Positions 10,117-53,700 of a stretch of 64,000 nucleotides of DNA are shown here, piece after piece. The translations under genes and the position numbers were made by a program. The notes under the pieces were generated by a model. The model did no database searches and was not told the origin of the DNA. It saw nothing but the letters and a program-made list of their open reading frames with translations. How positions within the stretch are numbered: position 1 is the stretch's first letter; every line of letters starts with the position of its first letter. The stretch comes from a virus (Duplodnaviria > Heunggongvirae > Uroviricota > Caudoviricetes), in the IMG/VR virus record IMGVR_UViG_3300024333_000003; one strand, given 5' to 3'.

Positions 10117-10560
10117 ATGGTTGTGTCGATAAATAAAGCAGATAACGAGGCACAATTGCGGATATTACGAACACCAGCTACTCGTGGTGAAGTGGGCCCA
10201 GCGGCCTTGTTGGCAGTAGATTTAATAGACACCGCTAAGAACTATGAAATATGTATGGGGCTGGCAAGTAATCAAATCTGGACAAAAGAAAATGAGCCCA
10301 TACCGCATGTATTTGTAGTAAATATTTCTGATAATTGGAAAGTATTTATAAATGCAACGGCAAAAAGATCGGGTAAATACTTCTCGTTTGAAGAAGGATG
10401 TATGTCAAAACCCGGGTATAAGAAAAGATGTATTCGTCGAGAAATCGTTACCGTATCATATATGGATGAGGAAGGTACTCCACACGTTGATAAATTTGTC
10501 GGTATGCCGGCAATTATTATACAACATGAGTTGGATCATATGACCGGAAAATTAATTTAA
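10117..10560 (+). CDS. def: peptide deformylase
   Basis: GLASNQIW (GxGxAAxQ-like), EGCMS (EGCLS) and QHELDH (HExxH) motifs. Confidence 0.8.
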   Translation: MVVSINKADNEAQLRILRTPATRGEVGPAALLAVDLIDTAKNYEICMGLASNQIWTKENEPIPHVFVVNISDNWKVFINATAKRSGKYFSFEEGCMSKPGYKKRCIRREIVTVSYMDEEGTPHVDKFVGMPAIIIQHELDHMTGKLI

Positions 10561-11780: not shown

Positions 11781-12848
11781 ATGGATAACAACTTAATCTT
11801 TGCTATTGAAAAACTAGGGGCCACGATCTACTTATTTGGTGAATGTGTTTGGGCAACAGCATTAAAAATAAAAGTGCAGTATTATAAGTTAGCTATAATT
11901 GGAGTAACCCGCGAACAGGTAATTCCATTGTTAGATAACTATACATTGCACAGAACAAAACCAACACTGCAGATAAGTGACGGTGACACAACATATGAAT
12001 TGTATTTTTTGAATAGTATAGATAGTGTACCATTTGATCCTATATCGATAAACAATGCTATTCTCAGTCTGGATGGCAAGGTATTTCGCGCCGATGATTT
12101 AAAGAATAAACTCATTCGTGCCAATACCTCCACATTTCTCGATTACCCCGAAGAGTTATTACGGATATGTCGCATTGCTGCGCAAACCTCTTTTGCCGTA
12201 GATGTCCCAACGTGGGTAACAATGTACGAACATTCACGATTGATCAAGAATGTAGTAAAGAGCAACCCAGCATATATTGGAAAACAATTGCAACAAATAA
12301 TTATGTCAAAAAATCCGGGGCATGGTTTTCGTTTGATGTTAGAGACCAACGTACTACAATATATTTTTCCAGAGTTAGCACGTTGTAACAATATTCGTCA
12401 AACACGTCGGGGCGAAGGCATCAATGTATTTGAACACATATTGTTGGCTATAAATGCGGCAGCACTTGAAGAAGAAATCAGATGGACTATGTTATTTCAT
12501 GATATGGCAAAACCAACTACTATGGATATTACTTCCGATGGTAAAATGCATTTTTTCAAACACGAATTTGTAGGCGCCGAGCTCGCTGTAACATACATGA
12601 CAAAATATAAATTACCGCCGTCTCTAATACAAACTGTAAAGATATTAATAGAGAATCATATGTTTGACGCGGACCCGAAGTTAACCGTAAAGGGCGTGCG
12701 TCGTCTAATTAAAAGAGTCGGCAAAGAAAACATATATCAACTTATAAAAGTGCGAGAAGCGGATAGACGTGGTACCATGGTTCCACCGTCAAATGATAAG
12801 ATAGAATTGTTAAAAACCAAAATCGAAAAAGAATTATCAAATGTTTAA
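11781..12848 (+). CDS. CCA-adding-enzyme-like protein with degenerate nucleotidyltransferase head and HD domain
   Basis: FLDYPEELLRICRIAAQTSF resembles the EDPLR(I/M)LRA(I/A)RF motif. HD motif MLFHDMAKP. The GGxVRD...DxD head motif is replaced by GECVWATAL. Confidence 0.5.
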   Translation: MDNNLIFAIEKLGATIYLFGECVWATALKIKVQYYKLAIIGVTREQVIPLLDNYTLHRTKPTLQISDGDTTYELYFLNSIDSVPFDPISINNAILSLDGKVFRADDLKNKLIRANTSTFLDYPEELLRICRIAAQTSFAVDVPTWVTMYEHSRLIKNVVKSNPAYIGKQLQQIIMSKNPGHGFRLMLETNVLQYIFPELARCNNIRQTRRGEGINVFEHILLAINAAALEEEIRWTMLFHDMAKPTTMDITSDGKMHFFKHEFVGAELAVTYMTKYKLPPSLIQTVKILIENHMFDADPKLTVKGVRRLIKRVGKENIYQLIKVREADRRGTMVPPSNDKIELLKTKIEKELSNV

Positions 12849-24490: not shown

Positions 24491-24715
24491 CATGAAACAC
24501 AACAGAGACAAAGATGAATTAAAGGTTTTAAAACGTAAAAGAGTTTGGGATAGATTTAAGTGGTGGTATAATAATCAAACGAATAGGTTGTTTAAAAATC
24601 ATTGGTTGAAAGATAGTTGTAGTATGTGTAAATATGAACAAGCTATCAAATATCGCGAACATACTATACAACGCAGAAAAGATAAAAAAGTCATTAATGA
24701 ACAATTAAATGACAT

Positions 24716-24789
24716 GGAGACATAGCTCAGTCGGTAGAGCTCTAGGCTGAAGACCTGGGTATGCACTGGTTCGATTCCGGTTGTCTCCA
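24716..24789 (+). tRNA. tRNA-Phe (GAA)
   Basis: GGAGACA/UGUCUCC acceptor, D-arm GCUCAGUCGGUAGAGC, anticodon loop CUGAAGA. Confidence 0.85.
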
Positions 24790-24796
24790 CAATAAA

Positions 24797-24871
24797 CGAC
24801 GCGTAGCTAAATTGGTGACGGCAGCCGCCTTATACACGGAAGATATGTGGGTTCAAGTCCTACCGCGTCGA
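24797..24871 (+). tRNA. tRNA, anticodon unresolved (loop contains UAU)
   Basis: Perfect 7-bp acceptor CGACGCG/CGCGUCG and T-arm GUGGG-UUCAAGU-CCUAC. D and anticodon arms irregular by eye. Confidence 0.5.
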
Positions 24872-24889
24872 CTAAAAAATACAATAAAT

Positions 24890-24961
24890 TCAGCAGTAAC
24901 TCAACGGTAGAGTGCCTGGCTGTTAACCAGGATGTTGAAGGTTCGAGCCCTTCCTGCTGAG
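24890..24961 (+). tRNA. tRNA-Asn (GUU)
   Basis: Anticodon arm CCUGG-CUGUUAA-CCAGG, T-loop UUCGAGC. Confidence 0.85.
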
Positions 24962-25101
24962 CTAGCGGGTCGATAGATGTTAGTTATCGGTTAAAGCATA
25001 TATCTCAAAAATATAACACTCTAGGTTCAAGTCCTAGCGCGTATGAAAATACGTAGTAGCTAAATTAAAAACACTGACGTCGCTTAAATTACCCGCGATA
25101 T

Positions 25102-25184
25102 GTATCTGTTGAGCAACTGGCTGGCTCGCCTGACTGTAGATCAGGTCCCCTTTGGGCGTGGGGGTTCGAATCCCTCCAGATACA
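25102..25184 (+). tRNA. tRNA-Tyr (GUA), class II
   Basis: Anticodon arm CCUGA-CUGUAGA-UCAGG with long variable arm; acceptor GUAUCUG/CAGAUAC. Confidence 0.8.
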
Positions 25185-25186
25185 CT

Positions 25187-25261
25187 GTGGCCGTAGGACA
25201 ATTGGCTTAGTCCGACAGGTTGTGGCCCTGTACGTTATGGGTTCGAATCCCATCGGTCACC
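25187..25261 (+). tRNA. tRNA-His (GUG)
   Basis: Anticodon arm ACAGG-UUGUGGC-CCUGU, T-loop UUCGAAU. Confidence 0.8.
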
Positions 25262-25318
25262 TACATTCCCCTTGTGTCCCTGAAGAAATTCAAACCTTGG
25301 GTAGAAAGGAAAAACATC

Positions 25319-25985
25319 ATGAGTAACATTTTATTGGAATTACAAGCTGGCGAGGGTGGAGCGGATGCAAAACTCCTCGTCGAGGATCAATTAAGTATTT
25401 ATTTAAAAGTCGCGTATAAACACGGACTTTGAGGCAATTCCAATATATGTTAGTGATGGGTTTGCTTCAGTTCAGGTTATCGGACAAAGAGCAAAGGAAT
25501 TATTTGAAAACGAGGGTGGTGCGCACCAATGGCACAGAGTTCCTCCTACAGAAAACCGAGGACGAACACATACCTCTGTTGTAACAGTTGCAGTGTTGGA
25601 TCTTATAGAACTTCCCGAGGTCAGTATAAATTTTAATGACGTTGAAGTTACAACCACTAAAGGAAGCGGTCCTGGAGGACAGAATCGTAATAAAGTTGAA
25701 ACAGTTGTTGTATTAAAACATAAATCAGGGTTAACTGTTCGTTGCGGTTCCGAAAGATCCCAGTACCAAAACAAACAACTTGCTTTTGAAATATTATATT
25801 CTAAGTTACAACGTATCGCTAAATATAATCATCAAAAACAAGCGGCCCAAAATAAACGATTGCAGATGGGGTCGGGACATCGAGCAGAAAAAATTCGTAC
25901 TTATATGGTAAAACATAATTTATGGATTGACCATAGAACAAACGAGCGACGCGATCTGAAAGCGTGGATAAAGGGTAAATGGTAA
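25319..25985 (+). CDS. class I peptide chain release factor-like protein (RF/PrfH-like, lacks domain 1); needs programmed +1 frameshift at CUU UGA G (25427-25433)
   Basis: Frame 0 (25319-25432) gives MSNILLELQAGEGGADAKLLVEDQLSIYLKVAYKHGL* (RF domain-2 start). The +1 frame continues ...GGAHQWHRVPPTENRGRTHTS...SGPGGQNRNKVETVV... with GGQ, through to 25985. Confidence 0.7.
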
Positions 25986-26240
25986 TAGCATAGACATAAT
26001 GACAGACATTATATCTACGTTACGATCTTTGAAAATAGAGTACCAAATATGTTTGAATCAATGTTGCGCATGGTTTGCCCAGCAATATACATTGTCGTAA
26101 AAGGTACAAAGCTATAATAGCTACTCGTGCATACGCATAAAAATATAATTAATGGACTGCGGCTTTAATTGAAGTATTTTATGCCTGGAAATGAAACGTT
26201 CCATTAAGAGTAACCGCAGAGTCACAGCTATTATAGTTAT

Positions 26241-26315
26241 GGGAGATTAGCTCAGCTGGTTTAGAGCGTCGGTCCTACAAACCGAAGGTCCACGGTTCGA
26301 TCCCGTGATCTCCCA
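26241..26315 (+). tRNA. tRNA-Val (UAC) with C at position 33 (tentative)
   Basis: Anticodon arm UCGGU-CCUACAA-ACCGA, T-loop UUCGAUC. Confidence 0.6.
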
Positions 26316-26837
26316 CACATATGGAAAAGACAGACAATACAATCACTGTCGATATGCGCAAACATTTTAGCAGGCGTCTTCGAGAGGCTGCTAATAAAAA
26401 ACTTGCTTCCATAAAGCAAGAGTACGGCGATCTCGACAAACACATGTACGATTATAAGGATGAACGGGACACGGCTGCTTTATTACCATTAATCCTAAGC
26501 AAAGAAATTACGGTTGCGGATATAGATATATCCAAACTAATCAATCCTTTAAAAGAAGCCATAGATGAAATTTATTCTCCAAGTATCGATATCCTCGATC
26601 TTTTCGGTTCCACGGCATCGGCAAAAATAAGTAAACAAGGAAAGCAGTTACTACTTAAACATAAGGCGGCATTAGCTGAATGTGCAAAACGTGAAAATGC
26701 CGTCGAGAAGGAAATAGCCCGTATTGAGGATAAATTATTTTTTGGTGGAAGCGGAAAATCATTATTAAAGCTTCTAAAAGAGTTCATTGCAAAAAAGTTT
26801 TAAATAACAACCGACAACATCATTGATGTTGTCTTAC

Positions 26838-28294: not shown

Positions 28295-28903
28295 ATGAAA
28301 CAATATCCAGAAATTCCTAAAGATGTGCCATCTTTTAATGCACACGTGTTCGATAAAATAGATGGTAGTAACTTACGTTTTGAATACAGCAAAAAACGTG
28401 GTTGGTTTAAATTCGGTACGCGCACAAGATTATTTGACCAATCAGATGACGTATTTGGATCAGCAGTTCCTTTATTTCACGAAACGTTGTTATTCCCGCT
28501 TACCCAAATTATGATTGATAACCGATTTGAACATGCGGTAGTGTTTGCAGAATTTGCTGGGAAAAGAAGTTTTGCTGGACAACATGAAAAAGATGATGTG
28601 AAGACACTGACGGTGTTTGATGTGGCCTTAGATAAAAAAGGATTCGTATCTCCTAAGATGTTCATAAAATTATTTGACGGTAAAGTACTGATACCAAAAT
28701 ATCTTGGATATTATCGCTGGAATAAAGAATTTACCACTAAGATCTATTATAATGAAATAGAAGGAATCACTTTTGAAGGAGTCGTCGGCAAAGATGGGGA
28801 GGGGACGCACTACAATATGGCAAAAGCTAAGACATTGCAGTGGTTAAATAAAGTACATGCTTTATATTCAGATAATCTAGCAGATAAGATAATAAATAGT
28901 TAA
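28295..28903 (+). CDS. RNA-ligase-like nucleotidyltransferase (KxDGxN motif I)
   Basis: DKIDGSN (motif I), EGVVGK (motif IV), KAK (motif V). Confidence 0.55.
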   Translation: MKQYPEIPKDVPSFNAHVFDKIDGSNLRFEYSKKRGWFKFGTRTRLFDQSDDVFGSAVPLFHETLLFPLTQIMIDNRFEHAVVFAEFAGKRSFAGQHEKDDVKTLTVFDVALDKKGFVSPKMFIKLFDGKVLIPKYLGYYRWNKEFTTKIYYNEIEGITFEGVVGKDGEGTHYNMAKAKTLQWLNKVHALYSDNLADKIINS

Positions 28904-29463
28904 TGGAACAACTAATCTGCGGTAAAAACCATAAGAAGATCGGGGTAACTCCTTCGATCGTACTAATTAATCCTAAATATCCAAGAAACGTTGGCGCAAT
29001 AATACGTGCTGCATCTTGTTTTGGTATAGCCCAGGTTTGGTACACCGGCAATCGTGTATCAATGACACCAACAAAAGATTATCGTTTACCAAGAGAAGAA
29101 CGGATGAAGGGTTATAAAGAAGTTACACTCACACAATTTGATTATCCGTTTGATATGTTTGAAAAAGCAATTCCTATTGCAATTGAAGTGCGAGAAAACT
29201 CTGAAAACTTATTAGACTTTGAACATCCATATAATGCAGTGTATGTTTTTGGTCCAGAAGATGGTGGTATTGAACGAGTACATATGCAACACTGCCATCG
29301 AATTGTCACTATACCCACGAAACATTGCACAAACTTGGCAGCGGCTGTTTATCTTACTTTATATGATAGATATGCCAAACGAGTACGTGCAGGAAAAGAT
29401 CAAATATTCAATATAGGAAAAAATGAACAACGAGGTTATGAAGAAGGGGCTGAATTTGGATGA
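28903..29463 (+). CDS. SpoU/TrmH-family RNA 2'-O-methyltransferase
   Basis: NVGAIIRAASCFG and YVFGPEDGGI SPOUT motifs. Confidence 0.7.
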   Translation: MEQLICGKNHKKIGVTPSIVLINPKYPRNVGAIIRAASCFGIAQVWYTGNRVSMTPTKDYRLPREERMKGYKEVTLTQFDYPFDMFEKAIPIAIEVRENSENLLDFEHPYNAVYVFGPEDGGIERVHMQHCHRIVTIPTKHCTNLAAAVYLTLYDRYAKRVRAGKDQIFNIGKNEQRGYEEGAEFG

Positions 29464-29953: not shown

Positions 29954-30027
29954 GCTCTCGTACATCAATTGGACAGAGCTGCGCCTTCTAAGCGTGAGCG
30001 TTGCGAGTTCGAGTCTCGCCGAGAGTA
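29954..30027 (+). tRNA. tRNA-Arg (UCU), irregular D-arm
   Basis: Anticodon arm UGCGC-CUUCUAA-GCGUG, T-arm GCGAG-UUCGAGU-CUCGC. Confidence 0.55.
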
Positions 30028-30070
30028 CAAGATGCCCCTTAGCGTATTTTCATTCATAAGGAGAAAATAT

Positions 30071-30523
30071 ATGCTACCTATTTTAAAAAGAGACTTTGCC
30101 TCTGATATAGAATATTGGCTTAATGATATTAGAAAAGCCTTTGAGGAGGCAGCAAATTTGGAACTATGTTTTGAACCTATTGGTCGAGCATTTCCAAAAG
30201 TAAACATTTCCGAAACAGACAAGGAATTTGTCATAGAAGCGGCTTTGCCTGGTTATGGAAAAGATCAAATTAAATTAGAAGTTACAAATGATAAAGGAAG
30301 AAAGTTTCTTACTGTAAAAGGTGAGAAATCTGGGAAGGCTTCTAAGAAAGATACACGTTATCTTGCTCAAGAAGTACATTTTTCCTCGTTTCATCGTTCC
30401 TGGGCGCTTCCAGCCGATGTAGATGTAGATGCCATCAAAACTAATATGGATAGTGGAGTTCTTACTATCGAACTTCCAAAAACAAGTCCAAGCATCGACA
30501 AAAAAGAAATAACTATTAGCTAA
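30071..30523 (+). CDS. Hsp20/alpha-crystallin small heat-shock protein
   Basis: Alpha-crystallin domain FVIEAALPGYGKDQIKLEV...GVLTIELPK. Start ATG 30071 preceded by AAGGAG; the track ORF start overlaps the tRNA. Confidence 0.7.
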   Translation: MLPILKRDFASDIEYWLNDIRKAFEEAANLELCFEPIGRAFPKVNISETDKEFVIEAALPGYGKDQIKLEVTNDKGRKFLTVKGEKSGKASKKDTRYLAQEVHFSSFHRSWALPADVDVDAIKTNMDSGVLTIELPKTSPSIDKKEITIS

Positions 30524-30546: not shown

Positions 30547-31158
30547 ATGACAATACATATAATTGGTGATATACATGGATTATACACAGAAATATATTTG
30601 CCTATGATCAAGAAGATTGATGGACCTTCAATTCAATTAGGCGATATGGCCCATGGATTCCCAAATACATTTTTACCTGAGTTGCCGTCTCAACATAAAT
30701 TTATCCGCGGTAATCATGATAATCCAGAACTATGTAAAACACATCCTAATTATCTTGGAGAATTTGGATATATCGAAGAATGGGATATATTCTATCTAGG
30801 GGGTGGTTGGTCGACAGATTGGGACAGTAGAATTCCTGGTGTATCTTGGTGGTATGATGAGGAACTGTCAATGCGACAATGTTATGAAGCCTTAAAATTA
30901 TACGAGGTGTCAAAACCACGAATAGTGCTTTCACATGATTGTCCGGAAATAGCAAAGATAAGTATGCTGATATATTTATACGGAAAACATGCGTATAATC
31001 AACCTTCCAGAACAAATCAATTATTGCAAGCCATGTTTGAACTTCATAATCCATCTTATTGGTGTTTCGGTCATTTCCATCATACACGAAAATTTATAAT
31101 TCACAAAACTGCCTTTCAGTGTTTAGGAAAGGCACAATACACAACAATAGAGGTTTAA
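30547..31158 (+). CDS. calcineurin-like metallophosphoesterase
   Basis: GDIHG, GD...GNHD motifs. Confidence 0.65.
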   Translation: MTIHIIGDIHGLYTEIYLPMIKKIDGPSIQLGDMAHGFPNTFLPELPSQHKFIRGNHDNPELCKTHPNYLGEFGYIEEWDIFYLGGGWSTDWDSRIPGVSWWYDEELSMRQCYEALKLYEVSKPRIVLSHDCPEIAKISMLIYLYGKHAYNQPSRTNQLLQAMFELHNPSYWCFGHFHHTRKFIIHKTAFQCLGKAQYTTIEV

Positions 31159-31160
31159 CA

Positions 31161-31877
31161 ATGCACGAACTAGTAAAAAAGGCACGAAGCTTTGCAGAGA
31201 AACGACATGCAGGACATAAATATGGTACATTGCCAGTGGATATTATAGTACATCTTGATAACGTTTATCATGTTTTAATGGAATTTGGCGAAACCGACCC
31301 ATCGATGTTAGCGGCAGGATTCTTACATGATATATTAGAAGACACAAAAACTTCGCAAGAGGAACTGCAAGAAGAATTTGGTATGATAACTACTGCATTG
31401 GTTTTAGCGGTTACTGATGGAGAAGGTAAGAATCGTAAGGAACGCAAAGAAGCAATGTACAATAAAACGGCGGGTCATTTGCGATTCACACGTTTAAAAT
31501 TAGCTGACCGTATAGCAAACATGCGGTATTCCAAGGCTGAAAAGTCTCCGCAGCTGACAATGTATATGAAGGAGTATCCAGAATTTAAAGCTCGCTTATT
31601 CTTTGCGAACGATGGTAACGAAAAAATGTGGGAAACATTAGACGCTTTAATGAAAAGTGTGATTCCACGGACATTCAAATTGAGTCGTGAAAAAGATGTT
31701 AGCGGTGTTTCTGGAAAAGGTATAGTAGGAGAAGGAGTTATATTTACAAACGGTAAATGCGTAGTAACATGGTATGGAAAAATAGCATCAGTCACTGTTT
31801 ATAACACATTCGAGGATTGTGAGCAAATACATGGACACGAAGGAGCAACAAAATTTGTATTCGATAACAAGTTTTAA
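31161..31877 (+). CDS. Rel/SpoT-type HD hydrolase (small alarmone hydrolase-like)
   Basis: RHAGHKYGTLP...HLDNV...AAGFLHDILEDT matches the (p)ppGpp-hydrolase HD domain. Confidence 0.6.
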   Translation: MHELVKKARSFAEKRHAGHKYGTLPVDIIVHLDNVYHVLMEFGETDPSMLAAGFLHDILEDTKTSQEELQEEFGMITTALVLAVTDGEGKNRKERKEAMYNKTAGHLRFTRLKLADRIANMRYSKAEKSPQLTMYMKEYPEFKARLFFANDGNEKMWETLDALMKSVIPRTFKLSREKDVSGVSGKGIVGEGVIFTNGKCVVTWYGKIASVTVYNTFEDCEQIHGHEGATKFVFDNKF

Positions 31878-40494: not shown

Positions 40495-42110
40495 CTATGG
40501 AAACAATAAAAAAAGCATTGCAGCAGCCATGCAAACGATGTAATGAGGTTAAACTTGCATATATTTCGGCAAGATGTAAAGACATGTGTTTCTTTATTAC
40601 GTATCAAGACTCTTACGAAACTGTAAACGAGTTTAGTAGTTTTGAAAGTTACCCACCAAGGGATGTAGGTTTAATGGGGGATGGTGATAACGTAACATTT
40701 ATTTATTGTCTAAATTGTGGACAAATACAAGGACAATTTCCAGTATGACCTACACAATATATTTAAATTGGTGGTATGGTTCCCAGGAAGAGGAATCAGT
40801 GTTAAATCGCAGCGGTTATCCCGTACGCACAGAATTCCAGACTGACGAAGATCCATTCGAGATTGCGAGAAAATTATATGCAAACAATGTGACTGTTGTT
40901 ATACATAAAGTACAAGAATTATATCATGGGTCGAAATATGTAATTTCGGTATGTGATGATTCTAGACCAGGACAAAGATGAGATCCATCGTTTTTCATTT
41001 TCCAACTGAATTACCATATAATGCAATCAGATATGAATTAAAATGTGATTGGGGTTTGTATTACAAATGTCGCACACAACAAGAATTTGAACAATTAGAT
41101 CCGCACCTGATAATACAAGAAGGTTGTTTGATTCAGGCAATAGGTATTGATGATAATGTTATTGCAAACTGGCACTATGAGAAGAACAAATGGATAAAAA
41201 ATTAGAATTTGTTTGTTATTTTCGGTATACAAAATGGTATTTTATCAGTTTAGGACTTCATTTGAGTTTAAAACCATTTAATATTGAAATACATTTACCT
41301 GCAGGATTTATACGTATAGGAGTGGAAGAACGATATCCAACAGCACCGATAAATTGGCAAGAATGTGATAAAAAGTGTTTTGGAAAAAGAATAACATATT
41401 CTCTAAACGAAAAAGAACTAGTTACTAAACTACACGCGTTTATTCTTGTGCAAGATTCTCTGTCTTCAATAAAGGACGCGCGAAAACGTCATAGCGATGC
41501 TATGGAACTATTGCATAGATATAAAATGCTAGAACGGGAATATTTACAAAATAAATATTCTGTGCCCAATGAGTTAATAACTGCAAAGAACTTTTTACTT
41601 AGAGACGAACTAGGAGTACAAATTTGTCAAACTTAAAAGACGATATCGATTTACCATTGGTAAAAACCATTGCTTATTTAAACTTATTAGGTATCAAAAC
41701 ACTTTGGTCGTGTTGCGGATATAATTATCCTGAACAACCTGCGCATAAGGCGCACCAAATCGGTCAAATAAATATTTCAATGGAATTTTCTGATAAGGCG
41801 GCCTCAGTCGGTATTTATATTTTACAACTTAATTATGAATGGGCTTTAAAATGTCAATTAGTGAATCCTGCTCCATTACGAGCATATATTATATATAGTG
41901 ACATTAAAAGATTTCATCCTAATTGGGATGAAAACTCCGTACATTATCATGAGCATCCTTCACAGATGATTAATGGGTTGGAAAAGCGTTTGTATAAACT
42001 AAAGGATCAATTTATGGATGAAGTAGTATTAACTGATACAAACCACGCATCAAAACAAGCAAATCCCTATTGGGCTTATCCAGGGAGTGATCCATGGGTT
42101 ATACGAAAAA

Positions 42111-42458
42111 ATGATTTTATTTGTTGATGATGAAAAACAACCGGAGTGGTTTGATTTAAACCGCACCAATATTCATGTAGCCACAACATTTGAAGATGCG
42201 TTGAAATTAATTCAGAAAAATGTATATGACATTATTTACATGGATCATGATCTTGGAGATAGTTGTCATGATGGTTCTCATTTAATAACCGAATATGGCA
42301 AAGCAGGTAAGTCAATACAAAAAGTTTGTTGTATTTCGTGGAATCCACTTGGAGTAGAACGAATACGACTTGCTTGTAAAGATTTTAATATACCTTTCGA
42401 ATCACATGGTATGCGTATATTTGATTTGTTTCCAGTTATAGATGGACAATCTCACTAA
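42111..42458 (+). CDS. stand-alone CheY-like receiver domain protein
   Basis: MILFVDDEKQ...DIIYMDHDLGD acidic pocket pattern. Confidence 0.45.
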   Translation: MILFVDDEKQPEWFDLNRTNIHVATTFEDALKLIQKNVYDIIYMDHDLGDSCHDGSHLITEYGKAGKSIQKVCCISWNPLGVERIRLACKDFNIPFESHGMRIFDLFPVIDGQSH

Positions 42459-47006: not shown

Positions 47007-47088
47007 GCGCAAATGGTGGAACTGGCAGACACACCATCTTGAGGGGGTGGCGGAGAAATCCATAAGGGTTCGAGTCCCTTTTTGCGCA
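47007..47088 (+). tRNA. class II tRNA, probably Leu (GAG)
   Basis: Acceptor GCGCAAA/UUUGCGC, anticodon arm CCAUC-UUGAGGG-GGUGG (one G-U pair), long variable arm. Confidence 0.55.
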
Positions 47089-47641
47089 CAATCATAAACT
47101 AAATAAAAAGGTATATTATGGAAAGCAAAAGATTGTTATTTCAACGTGAAATAGAAACATCTATCAACGATATTCGGGATTACAGTGATTTTATATTTGC
47201 AGTTGGTTTGGATATAAAGGAACTCACACCAGAGGTGTTGAAACTAGATATTATACCAACAATGATAATTTCAACATCCGCGTTTAACGCATTGGCCAAA
47301 ATGAATATCCCAAAAGATTTTCTGGATAAATTAAAACAGGCTTCAATGTATACTTGTCCTTGGACTGAAAATACGTATTTCGGTACATTACCGATAGCAG
47401 TGGCAACATTTAATAAAAACAATTATAAAGACTTATTAACGGATTATCAATTAGACACCGAATTTCATCTCAGTATGAATGGCGGCGATGTTAAGAAATT
47501 ACTTATTCCAAACCTTGTAGAATTATCATTTATAGGGCATGGTTATACGTCTGCAACACTTCCCAGCGATGGTTCCCATACACTAGTACTTTGTACGATT
47601 GAATTACCTAATAAAGATTTTGCTATCTGTTTAACTTATGC

Positions 47642-48355
47642 ATGGCACAACAAATGATCAGAATATTTCAAGTTGGTGGTAGTGTTAGAGATTTAATATT
47701 ACGCGTTAAGTCAAAAGATATTGATTATGCAGTAGTAGCAGTTTCTTGGGAAGAAATGAGAAATTATATTCTTGCCAAAGGCAAAATATATCTCGAGACC
47801 CCAGAATACTTCACTATCCGTGCTCATATAGATGGTTTTGGTGATGCTGATTTTGTGTTATGTCGAAAGGATGGTAACTATTCAGACGGTCGTAGACCTG
47901 ATACTGTTGAGTTGGGCACATTGTATGACGATCTAGCCAGACGTGATTTCACAATGAATGCTATTGCGATCGACATGCAAGATCCAAAGCGTCCTTTTAT
48001 TGACCCGCATGGTGGGTTGATTGACATACAAAATAATCTCATTAAATGTGTTGGTAAGCCCGAAGATCGCTTCAATGAAGATGCTTTACGCATGCTACGC
48101 GCGTTAAGATTTGCCGTAACCAAAAAAATGCAGATCGACTTATCAGTAGAAGCATGTTTTGGTAATCGTGAGTTATTAAACAAATTGAATAATCGTATTT
48201 CTTGGGAACGTAAAAAAGACGAATTGTTTAAAATGTTCAAAACAAGTACAACACGAACTTTTGAATTGTTTGATCGATACCCATCAATGCGCGACGTATT
48301 ACTTTCTGATGACAAACCTTTGTGGCTTGAACCAACTTTACGAGCACGCCCATGA
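47642..48355 (+). CDS. tRNA nucleotidyltransferase (CCA-adding enzyme head domain)
   Basis: GGSVRD...DID nucleotidyltransferase motif, RRDFTMNA, EDALRMLRALRF. Confidence 0.7.
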   Translation: MAQQMIRIFQVGGSVRDLILRVKSKDIDYAVVAVSWEEMRNYILAKGKIYLETPEYFTIRAHIDGFGDADFVLCRKDGNYSDGRRPDTVELGTLYDDLARRDFTMNAIAIDMQDPKRPFIDPHGGLIDIQNNLIKCVGKPEDRFNEDALRMLRALRFAVTKKMQIDLSVEACFGNRELLNKLNNRISWERKKDELFKMFKTSTTRTFELFDRYPSMRDVLLSDDKPLWLEPTLRARP

Positions 48356-51857: not shown

Positions 51858-52565
51858 ACAAATCGGCCGGATCGAGATTGTTATCATAGATTCGACTTCT
51901 ATTTCTCCCGCCAAGAAAAAATTTGGGAGAAAGCGCAATGGACGCACTCAGTCTCACAACATTGCCGATCTATTTTTAAGGAAAATAAATGACTGCGTTA
52001 TTCGTTATTTTCACTATAATTGTTTCAGTGCTTATTGATCTGGCTGTTCAAGCACATCGTAAACATAAATCATTAAAAACAAAGCCAGAGATTTATTTAC
52101 ATGATCCAACACTCACTATGTGTGATGGCGGACAATTAAAGGAACAAGATATGAAATAGGGCTATATCAATACCTCGTAAACTCACCAGTTTATAATATT
52201 AATAACCGCGACAATAAGTCGCTATATATTTTTACTAAAACTGGAGTTTACAATGACAAAAGAACAATACAATCAACTAAAATCCGAGCTTAAAATCTTA
52301 GCTCAATTTCTTCATTACGACAACTATAATTCACGTGCCTACCAATCACAAAATGCCGGTGGCAAAAAGAAACCAAAAGAAATACCAGAACAATTAGAAA
52401 AGCAATTTAAGGAATTAAATATAAGTCCTTGGAGAGCTCACTATGAGTATAGACATAAACACATATTTATGTCTTTACAACGTGGTAAAAAACGTGAACA
52501 AATCGAAAGACCAAGACAAGGTAACGAACCCGATGAAAATTACATCAAAAAACTTGTGGAGCAGT

Positions 52566-52865
52566 ATGAAACAGTTGAACAGACTGTATGTGTTAGTGCG
52601 TGAAGACTTAAATCTTACATACGCTGGAGTTCAAGCTGGACATGCAGTAGCAAAATTTATGTTAGAATTCCCAGGTATATGGTGTAATACTACACTTATA
52701 TATTTGCGGATAAAGAATGAGGATAAGCTTATAGAATGGCGTGACAAATTAATTGTCAGAGGTATTCCGTATGCTTTATTTAGAGAACCTGATTTAATGA
52801 ATCAGGCAACTGCCGTCGCTGTATTGAGCGATGGTAATATATTTAAAAATGTAAAATTATTGTGA
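52566..52865 (+). CDS. Pth2-family peptidyl-tRNA hydrolase
   Basis: YVLVREDLNLTYAGVQAGHAVAKF matches the PTH2 core LVVRTDLxMxxGKxAAQCxHA; ATG 52566 with GGAG upstream. Confidence 0.55.
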   Translation: MKQLNRLYVLVREDLNLTYAGVQAGHAVAKFMLEFPGIWCNTTLIYLRIKNEDKLIEWRDKLIVRGIPYALFREPDLMNQATAVAVLSDGNIFKNVKLL

Positions 52866-52949: not shown

Positions 52950-53700
52950 TGCCCATTAACCTTATTGGTTAGCTATGAACAATCATAGTACTGTTCGCCA
53001 GAACTGCATTCCAGAATGATTTAGGTTAATTGCGAAAGCCCCTGGAACAGGGGAGTCCTACGCATACTTACCCGTCGTAGGTGAGCCTGTCTAATTATGG
53101 GTTAGACCCAGGGTCGATCCAAAAGGTAAGCTCGATCGAAATTAACTATTGTCTGCGTGGCCGAGAACGAAATAAGCACTAGTCTCTAAAACTAGTTACA
53201 CGGGGTCGTTCCCCGTCGCAGACACTTATTCCTCTGTGGTGAAATGAAAAGAGATGTATATTTGTTACGTATTAATATACATTACTAAGTCACTAGATTG
53301 AATTAGTAGGTGACAGCATCGAGTTACCAGTATAGACTGTTCTTTATGGTCAAGTTCAGAGCAAGTGTATTGGAAGAATAACTAGGATGAAGCGATTAAA
53401 CCAATTGTCATGCGACGAACGTTTAGTTGCGTAGCGGCTGAATATTCAATTGAAAATTAGAATGGGATCTTTACTACTCCCTGTCGAACGCTTACAAACG
53501 GAACTGACTGTCAGTAGACTAAAAGTAATGCTGCAGGTTTGAGTCCTGCCAGAGGGATAAATTTTTATCCGGACGGCGTATTATTCTCTCGACGCCTAAT
53601 AAATATGGGGAGATTATCAGTCCTGTCATAAACAATTCCGCTCAATGAGCACCGGAGCCATTTGATAGGACTTTTGCATTATATATGGCTCCGCCACGAT
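52950..53700 (+). ncRNA. group I intron-like ribozyme core in an ORF-free region
   Basis: P4-P6-like UUAAUUGCGAAAGCCCCUGGAACAGGGGAGUCCUACGCAUAC (~53024-53065). R-like CAGUAGACUAAAAG (~53515-53528) and S-like AUUAUCAGUCC (~53609-53619) can form P7. Confidence 0.45.

Follow-up and report, generated by a model that had tools for sequence, protein, structure and literature searches.

The +1 frameshift at a CUU codon followed by a stop has until now been regarded as a hallmark of bacterial genes for release factor 2 (RF2), in which a slippery CUU precedes a premature stop, usually UGA. Other proteins bear on the gene described here as well. ArfB is a GGQ domain alone with a basic C-terminal tail and no decoding domains, PrfH (RFH) has a divergent decoding region with neither PxT nor SPF and an obligate RtcB partner, and RF1 touches both RF3 and the L11 stalk through its domain 1. 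Across 12,753 genomes, a survey found prfA without a programmed frameshift and detected no TAG at the prfB site (PMC12421855), and all CUU-stop entries in RECODE are prfB according to a paper on a frameshift-prediction tool (PMC10274946). RF1 truncated to remove domain 1 still releases peptides in vitro and is functional in vivo, and stimulation of RF3 requires the domain (PMC1586002). Among viruses, huge phages and stop-codon-recoded phages carry RF1 and RF2 genes along with many tRNAs, and these release factors have been read as part of a code-change module (Al-Shayeb 2020, PMC7162821; Borges 2021 preprint); a term search of the two papers returned no mention of frameshifting. The class I release factor of Mimivirus and Megavirus has an mRNA that itself needs frameshift and readthrough at internal stops (PMC3521657). 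No description of a frameshift-gated RF1-type phage factor was found in the literature searched.

The window, which is the whole 64,000-nucleotide stretch of phage DNA that was analysed, contains a release-factor gene of 667 nt. This gene very probably uses a programmed +1 frameshift to express an RF1-type factor without domain 1, the output of which would rise when UGA termination is poor, as judged from sequence comparison and a structure model (Table 1). Relatives have AGGAG-type sites at the position matching the AAGGA of the window. Frame 0 encodes only 37 residues (MSNILLELQAGEGGADAKLLVEDQLSIYLKVAYKHGL) before it stops at CUU UGA G, as the earlier note stated, and past the TGA it reads GNSNIC and then TAG TGA, the seventh and eighth codons after the TGA; the TAG that the same note had cited against plain readthrough sits where it had been placed. 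The +1 frame is open from 25407 onward, and codons 38-92 cannot be translated without a shift because they have no start codon of their own. The frame does continue to a TAA, although the joined product has 221 residues and not the 222 first given, since the +1 segment has 184 sense codons and a stop. The predicted tryptic junction peptide of the shifted product is HGLEAIPIYVSDGFASVQVIGQR. A longer listed ORF from TTG 25220 is spurious, as it begins inside a tRNA-His gene.

Table 1. Coordinates of the release-factor gene, its shift site and other features of the window
Feature	Position	Strand	Remark
Peptide deformylase	10117-10557		
Nucleotidyltransferase, CCA-adding type	11781-12845		
tRNA-His	25187-25261		ends 57 nt upstream of the gene
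Shine-Dalgarno-like AAGGA	25306-25310	+	8 nt 5' of the start; read directly
Frame-0 segment, codons 1-37	25319-25429	+	start codon ATG 25319-25321, read directly; first strand and helix alpha-5 of RF domain 2 (ELQAGEGGADAKLLV...)
ACGGACTTTGA	25422-25432	+	11 nt; no longer stretch of the gene is invariant in the window's subclade
Shift site CUU UGA G	25427-25433	+	CTT 25427-25429, TGA 25430-25432, G 25433
+1-frame segment, 184 codons and TAA	25431-25985	+	starts at GAG 25431; TAA 25983-25985
PPT tripeptide, RF1-type PxT codon-reading motif	25542-25550	+	counterpart of PVT in RF1 of T. thermophilus and T. maritima
GTG, first possible +1-frame start codon	25593-25595	+	no start codon from 25407 to 25593
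GGQ catalytic motif	25674-25682	+	read directly; invariant in both alignments made
RNA ligase, PF09414	28295-28900		
SpoU methylase	28903-29460		
Hsp20	29969-30520		
Metallophosphatase	30547-31155		
HD domain protein	31059-31874		
Cyclic-phosphate-processing receiver domain	42087-42455		
tRNA-Leu (GAG)	47007-47089	+	ARAGORN; can read CUU, putatively also at the shift site
Nucleotidyltransferase, CCA-adding type	47642-48352		
Weak Pth2-like ORF	52443-52862		PF01981 E 0.0045, 17.6 bits vs cutoff 23
tRNA with anticodon CTA	53151-53225		amber-suppressor type; ARAGORN label Pyl

The interruption recurs in independent assemblies. Near-identical copies with the same split (99% identity) occur in a 214.5-kb ENA contig (L106) and in L107; an exact look-up of the 130-aa ORF of the window itself (P0001) gave no contig, and P0002, its relative at 99%, gave one. 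Four further relatives from different samples, at 67-83% protein identity, have the same split (L099 on a 197-kb contig of an NCBI assembly, L103, L104 and L105), and each close relative has a 37-codon ORF, then A(A/C)ACGGA CTT TGA, then a +1 ORF. Because close and distant relatives in independent assemblies keep a CTT TGA or CTT TAG interruption, a sequencing indel, which the earlier note had named as the finding that would overturn its reading, is excluded, and the interruption is, on this comparative evidence, not a sequencing error. The invariant run at the shift site was counted over 5 unique subclade sequences, in which 54% of alignment columns are invariant overall. In pairwise comparison, codons 1-37 read in frame 0 have a dN/dS of 0.16, and in the +1 frame the ratio is 0.23 over codons 38-92 and 0.06 over codons 93-221, so that each half is under purifying selection in its own frame; every wrong frame has 2-4 stops. 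These ratios and the missing start in codons 38-92 indicate that both halves are translated and can be joined only by a +1 shift. Transcriptional slippage was ruled out by the run of only three T at the site, and an intron or intein by the halves being offset by one base and co-linear.

The joined product has the features of a release factor of the RF1 type. Its frame-0 part aligns with residues 107-140 of T. thermophilus RF1, and the +1 segment completes domain 2 and supplies domain 3, which has the GGQ motif, and domain 4, which has the switch-loop region. Pfam assigns PCRF (profile positions 100-194 of 194) and RF-1. The NCBIfam RF1 profile (NF001859 / TIGR00019) matches residues 2-219 on positions 104-329 of 347 in one stretch at 175.7 bits, and the curated RF1 cutoffs are not reached (175.7 bits vs 400; 170 vs 423.25). 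With the RF2 profile (TIGR00020) the score is only 120 bits (cutoff 370), and the tripeptide is PPT, not SPF. The ArfB match is confined to residues 99-134 (37 bits), and the joined protein has domains 2 and 4. Among solved structures, T. maritima RF1 (E 4e-39, residues 88-300) and T. thermophilus RF1 (residues 107-325) match best; both alignments are single and cross residue 37/38. Aligned elements include the helix alpha-5 tip (GG-A-D vs GG-E-E), the tripeptide (PPT vs PVT), HTS, GGQ and the GSGxRxEKIRTY region. Uninterrupted homologues align with the joined product without a gap at the junction, so that the co-linearity proposed as a check in the earlier note is found with RF1 profiles, RF1 chains and homologues alike. 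An AlphaFold (AF2) model of the joined product, built from 36 sequences, has a mean pLDDT of 92.5 (about 97 around the junction) and a pTM of 0.79; the junction sits between a helix at 14-34 and a strand at 38-45, after a first strand at 2-10. The top Foldseek match of this model is ribosome-bound T. thermophilus RF1 (TM 0.93, rmsd 1.7 A).

Domain 1 is absent, as had been noticed from the sequence, since the RF1 profile match begins only at position 104. There is no room for it, because the upstream neighbour is a tRNA gene, and relatives also have stops just 5' of their starts. By alignment and predicted fold, the protein is thus an RF1-type factor with domains 2-4 and without domain 1. Its PPT tripeptide, described as RF1-like from the outset, is borne out by the alignment to the solved RF1 chains and makes the product look UAA/UAG-specific and not UGA-specific. 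The helix alpha-5 residue equivalent to E119 of T. thermophilus RF1 is an invariant Asp across the phage family, compared with Glu in RF1 and RF2, and the equivalent of Q181 is His in the window's subclade; we take E119 and Q181 to bear on codon specificity. Two frameshifted relatives (L006 and L017) have a shortened or lost codon-reading loop (WQHAPTGKVHTS and VQRTSNGRIHSS) and keep CTT TGA and GGQ; their stop-codon specificity may have changed or been lost.

Comparison was extended to a wider phage family. A megablast search of 24700-26400 against phage records gave no match, and relatives were therefore sought by protein patterns; scans of IMG/VR gave 250 relatives, and about 130 loci were examined. 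Among these, 47 unique loci, on contigs of up to 480 kb and with GC contents of 0.33 to 0.68, pass from frame 1 into frame 2 just behind the counterpart of L37. In all 47, frame 0 ends with the codon CTT, followed by TGA in 41, TAG in six and TAA in none, and the base 3' of the stop is C (29), G (14, as in the window), A (3) or T (1). A CTT and stop at the homologous codon in 47 of 47 loci is, on these counts, far beyond chance. A GGAGG-like element lies upstream in 37 of the 47, and the family consensus reads C-G-G-A-G-G-G-G-T-CTT-TGA-C. If GGAGG is taken as the core that pairs, 3 nt separate it from CTT (GGAGG-GGT-CTT register), a layout in line with that of E. coli prfB. Examples are GGAGGGGT CTT TGA C in L002 and CTT TAG in L001. 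The internal Shine-Dalgarno element is absent from the window (aaacacGGA CTT TGA g) and from its subclade (A(A/C)ACGGA CTT), and no downstream stimulatory RNA structure was detected in that subclade (alifold -12.7 kcal/mol; single-sequence z -1.4 to +0.4). Frameshift efficiency in the window may therefore be low.

The tripeptide is PPT or SPT in most relatives. Eleven of the frameshifted genes end their full-length frame in TGA, and TGA is therefore a working stop in those phages. In a neighbour-joining tree, which has no support values, the family groups with E. coli RF1 with RF2 as the outgroup, and the frameshifted members form a broad grade, not one tip clade. Two loci (L026 and L027, 451-660) have a second partial copy of the N-terminal part of the factor (residues 1-75) about 1 kb upstream of the full gene.

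The window itself uses the standard code. Reading TAG or TGA as sense does not lengthen its long ORFs, and TAA, TGA and TAG end 49, 32 and 10 of its 91 predicted genes, respectively. Near-identical contigs of ~215 kb indicate a jumbo phage, and a helicase, an endonuclease and a polymerase exonuclease subunit are the replication and nucleotide-metabolism ORFs with matches to phage protein families. The release-factor gene is flanked by tRNA genes within a tRNA-rich region (23489-60996), in which ARAGORN finds 37 tRNAs where the earlier note had counted about 38. Genes of RNA repair and RNA modification alternate with these tRNAs, namely the RNA ligase, SpoU methylase, metallophosphatase, HD domain protein, cyclic-phosphate-processing receiver domain and second CCA-adding-type enzyme of Table 1. 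One of the tRNAs is of the amber-suppressor type, with anticodon CTA; the window shows no sign of TAG recoding despite it, and an amber suppressor alongside an RF1-type factor is an odd pairing. The Pth2 gene that had been listed beside the factor is less secure: among the 30 ORFs scanned none matches Pth2 at E <= 0.001, and the only candidate is the sub-threshold PF01981 match in Table 1.

In the proposed mechanism, ribosomes would start at the ATG, translate 37 codons and arrive with CUU in the P site and UGA in the A site. With slow UGA termination, the peptidyl-tRNA-Leu would re-pair from CUU to UUU, GAG would be read next and the remaining 184 codons would be translated, whereas only a 37-residue fragment would be made where termination wins; the amount of factor would rise as UGA termination worsens. 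In most relatives, pairing of the upstream GGAGG with 16S rRNA would promote the shift. That slippage occurs, and how efficiently, we infer from the sequence. The UGA at the shift site would be decoded by host RF2, and the gate would then sense RF2 activity and not the level of the product itself. Because the product is predicted to read UAA and UAG and the gate is UGA, cross-regulation through host RF2, rather than self-regulation of the prfB kind, would be the most likely logic. The factor could serve to top up UAA/UAG termination of the phage without dependence on RF3, and its manipulating or repairing host termination, as suggested in the earlier note, is speculation.

The conservation of a premature stop across the family, as TGA as well as TAG, would also fit a negative feedback like that of prfB, in which the phage factor itself recognises the premature stop through a broadened or omnipotent specificity and so limits its own synthesis. 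The hybrid SPT tripeptide of some members and the invariant Asp in helix alpha-5 are in keeping with this reading, and for the six members with UAG, ordinary RF1 specificity would be enough for self-regulation. Feedback is nevertheless unlikely, because the tripeptide of the window follows the RF1 pattern, sequence and fold overall are nearest to RF1, and tripeptide type is uncorrelated with the stop at the shift site. A site that is no sensor and merely holds a potentially harmful factor at a low and constant level would agree with the harm that release-factor overproduction causes in bacteria (PMC12421855) and with the lack of stimulators in the window, which suggests low efficiency. Such fixed-ratio attenuation is likewise rather improbable: a weak start site or weak promoter would do equally well, and what the site shows, a strictly kept CTT and stop, no TAA and a weak +4 base (C or G in 43 of 47), suggests a tuned competition with termination.

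PrfH also lacks domain 1, and the earlier note had likened the product to PrfH-type rescue factors. On this reading the factor would rescue damaged or stalled ribosomes independently of codons, together with neighbouring RNA-repair genes, and an RNA ligase, a SpoU methylase and CCA-adding enzymes do lie in the same tRNA-rich region. Close relatives have an RNA 2'-phosphotransferase gene (PTS_2-RNA) directly upstream, in one case, or a SpoU methylase gene downstream (L103 711-1238; L099 3643-4287), and the association of the factor gene with RNA repair and modification thus recurs. The likeness to PrfH does not hold, however. The PrfH profile (TIGR03072) gives 75.4 bits against a cutoff of 166.65, far from the RF1 score; solved PrfH chains match only at E 1e-8, compared with 4e-39 for RF1; PrfH ranks 49th among the Foldseek matches with a TM of 0.66; the product retains PxT for codon reading, HTS and the switch-loop region; and no ORF scanned between 20 and 32 kb matches RtcB, which is also missing from the adjoining genes. 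By sequence and modelled fold the protein is not PrfH, and rescue of this kind is very improbable. That there is no frameshift at all, and that the locus makes a 37-residue peptide and a separate GGQ-domain protein (130 aa, from the GTG) or is a decaying pseudogene or assembly error, is scarcely credible even though gene callers annotate only the 130-aa ORF, given that codons 38-92 have a dN/dS of 0.23 and the PxT motif without a start codon, that 47 unique loci, drawn from many samples, are split in the same way and that the joined protein models as one confident RF1 body.

Premature stops are also common in homologues that stay in one frame. Only six of 43 unique single-frame homologues are without an internal stop. 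Two of the interrupted ones, 70% identical to each other, have an in-frame stop at the exact frameshift codon (TAT TAG ATG in L025 and CTA TGA CTG in L029, 1609-1614), which suggests that they are readthrough variants of the same gate; they lie on the same contigs as L114 and L113. A low-GC clade (L013-L016, L019-L090), which includes the 630-735-kb phages LR756501-04, has its stop at a fixed codon ('SI*L') ~14 residues past the shift codon. This codon is TGA in 30 unique loci, TAG in two (L022, L042) and never TGG, and a second TGA often occurs at residues 32-44. The 50 kb around the gene in LR756504.1 (545000-594999, L224) give no TGA-sense signal of the kind expected genome-wide: TGG occurs 154 times, the long ORFs stay as they are, and candidate TGA-containing ORFs are mostly spurious-looking. 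ORF-merging statistics on L025, L029 and the low-GC clade do not discriminate recoded genomes, especially at high GC. In all, 84 of 90 unique family loci have a premature stop within the first ~55 codons. If the in-frame stops are recoding sites and not reassigned sense codons, nearly the whole family would be gated by premature stops, a possibility that we hold only tentatively and incline to doubt. If it is true, synthesis of an RF1-type factor would be tied to termination failure, mostly of RF2-dependent UGA, as a cross-factor sensor; the phage could compensate for or exploit a loss of RF2 activity, and the arrangement could mark an intermediate step by which phages come to reassign UGA.

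From the sequences compared, the frameshift device of prfB is found here at a new position, in another paralogue and in viruses, and sometimes with TAG. This suggests an independent origin or recruitment of the cassette and an ability to tie the synthesis of one factor to the activity of another. Since gene callers annotate members of the family as fragments of 130-200 aa, release factors of phages are wrongly annotated and too few are counted. The family offers a compact and testable system for phage tuning of host termination, for a domain-1-less factor working alone and for the onset of stop-codon reassignment.

Among known systems, cellular RF1 (prfA) is the best match of the phage protein in profile, sequence and fold, and PxT, GGQ and domains 2-4 are common to both; the phage protein differs in having no domain 1 and in scoring far below the family cutoffs. 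A search of one genome per bacterial or archaeal species found no split RF1 gene among the best 80 matches, all of which are ordinary single-frame RF1, most with at least 100 open codons upstream, as domain 1 requires. Six copies from Patescibacteria/Saccharibacteria and other MAGs (L145, L151, L158, L187, L198 and L208) have too few upstream open codons for domain 1, and none is frameshifted; such copies could be cellular but short, or could come from phage DNA that was binned with a MAG. PrfH resembles the phage factor as a short class I factor without domain 1, but neither its divergent decoding region nor its RtcB partner is found with the gene of the window. In contrast to code-change phages, the window keeps to the standard code, in which TGA serves as an ordinary stop. 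The Mimivirus factor is the closest viral parallel, although it is of the eRF1 (eukaryotic/archaeal) type, belongs to a eukaryotic virus and is unrelated in sequence. Bacterial prfB shares with the phage site the slippery CUU and the premature stop and, with most phage relatives, a GGAGG-type internal Shine-Dalgarno element at compatible spacing and a C after the stop; the site of E. coli K-12, read from its genome, is CTT AGG GGG TAT CTT TGA C. The window's subclade, unlike prfB, lacks the internal element, and the base after the stop in the window is G where prfB typically has C. The phage gene is of the RF1 type, whereas prfB encodes RF2, and its site is not at the prfB position, as had been recognized at first reading: codon 38, where it lies, falls between helix alpha-5 and the strand that follows in domain 2, whereas the site of prfB is at codon 26, in domain 1. 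The premature stop is TAG in six of 47 phage loci, a stop not detected in prfB (PMC12421855). Self-regulation, which characterizes prfB, is doubtful in the phage gene, the product of which should not read UGA.
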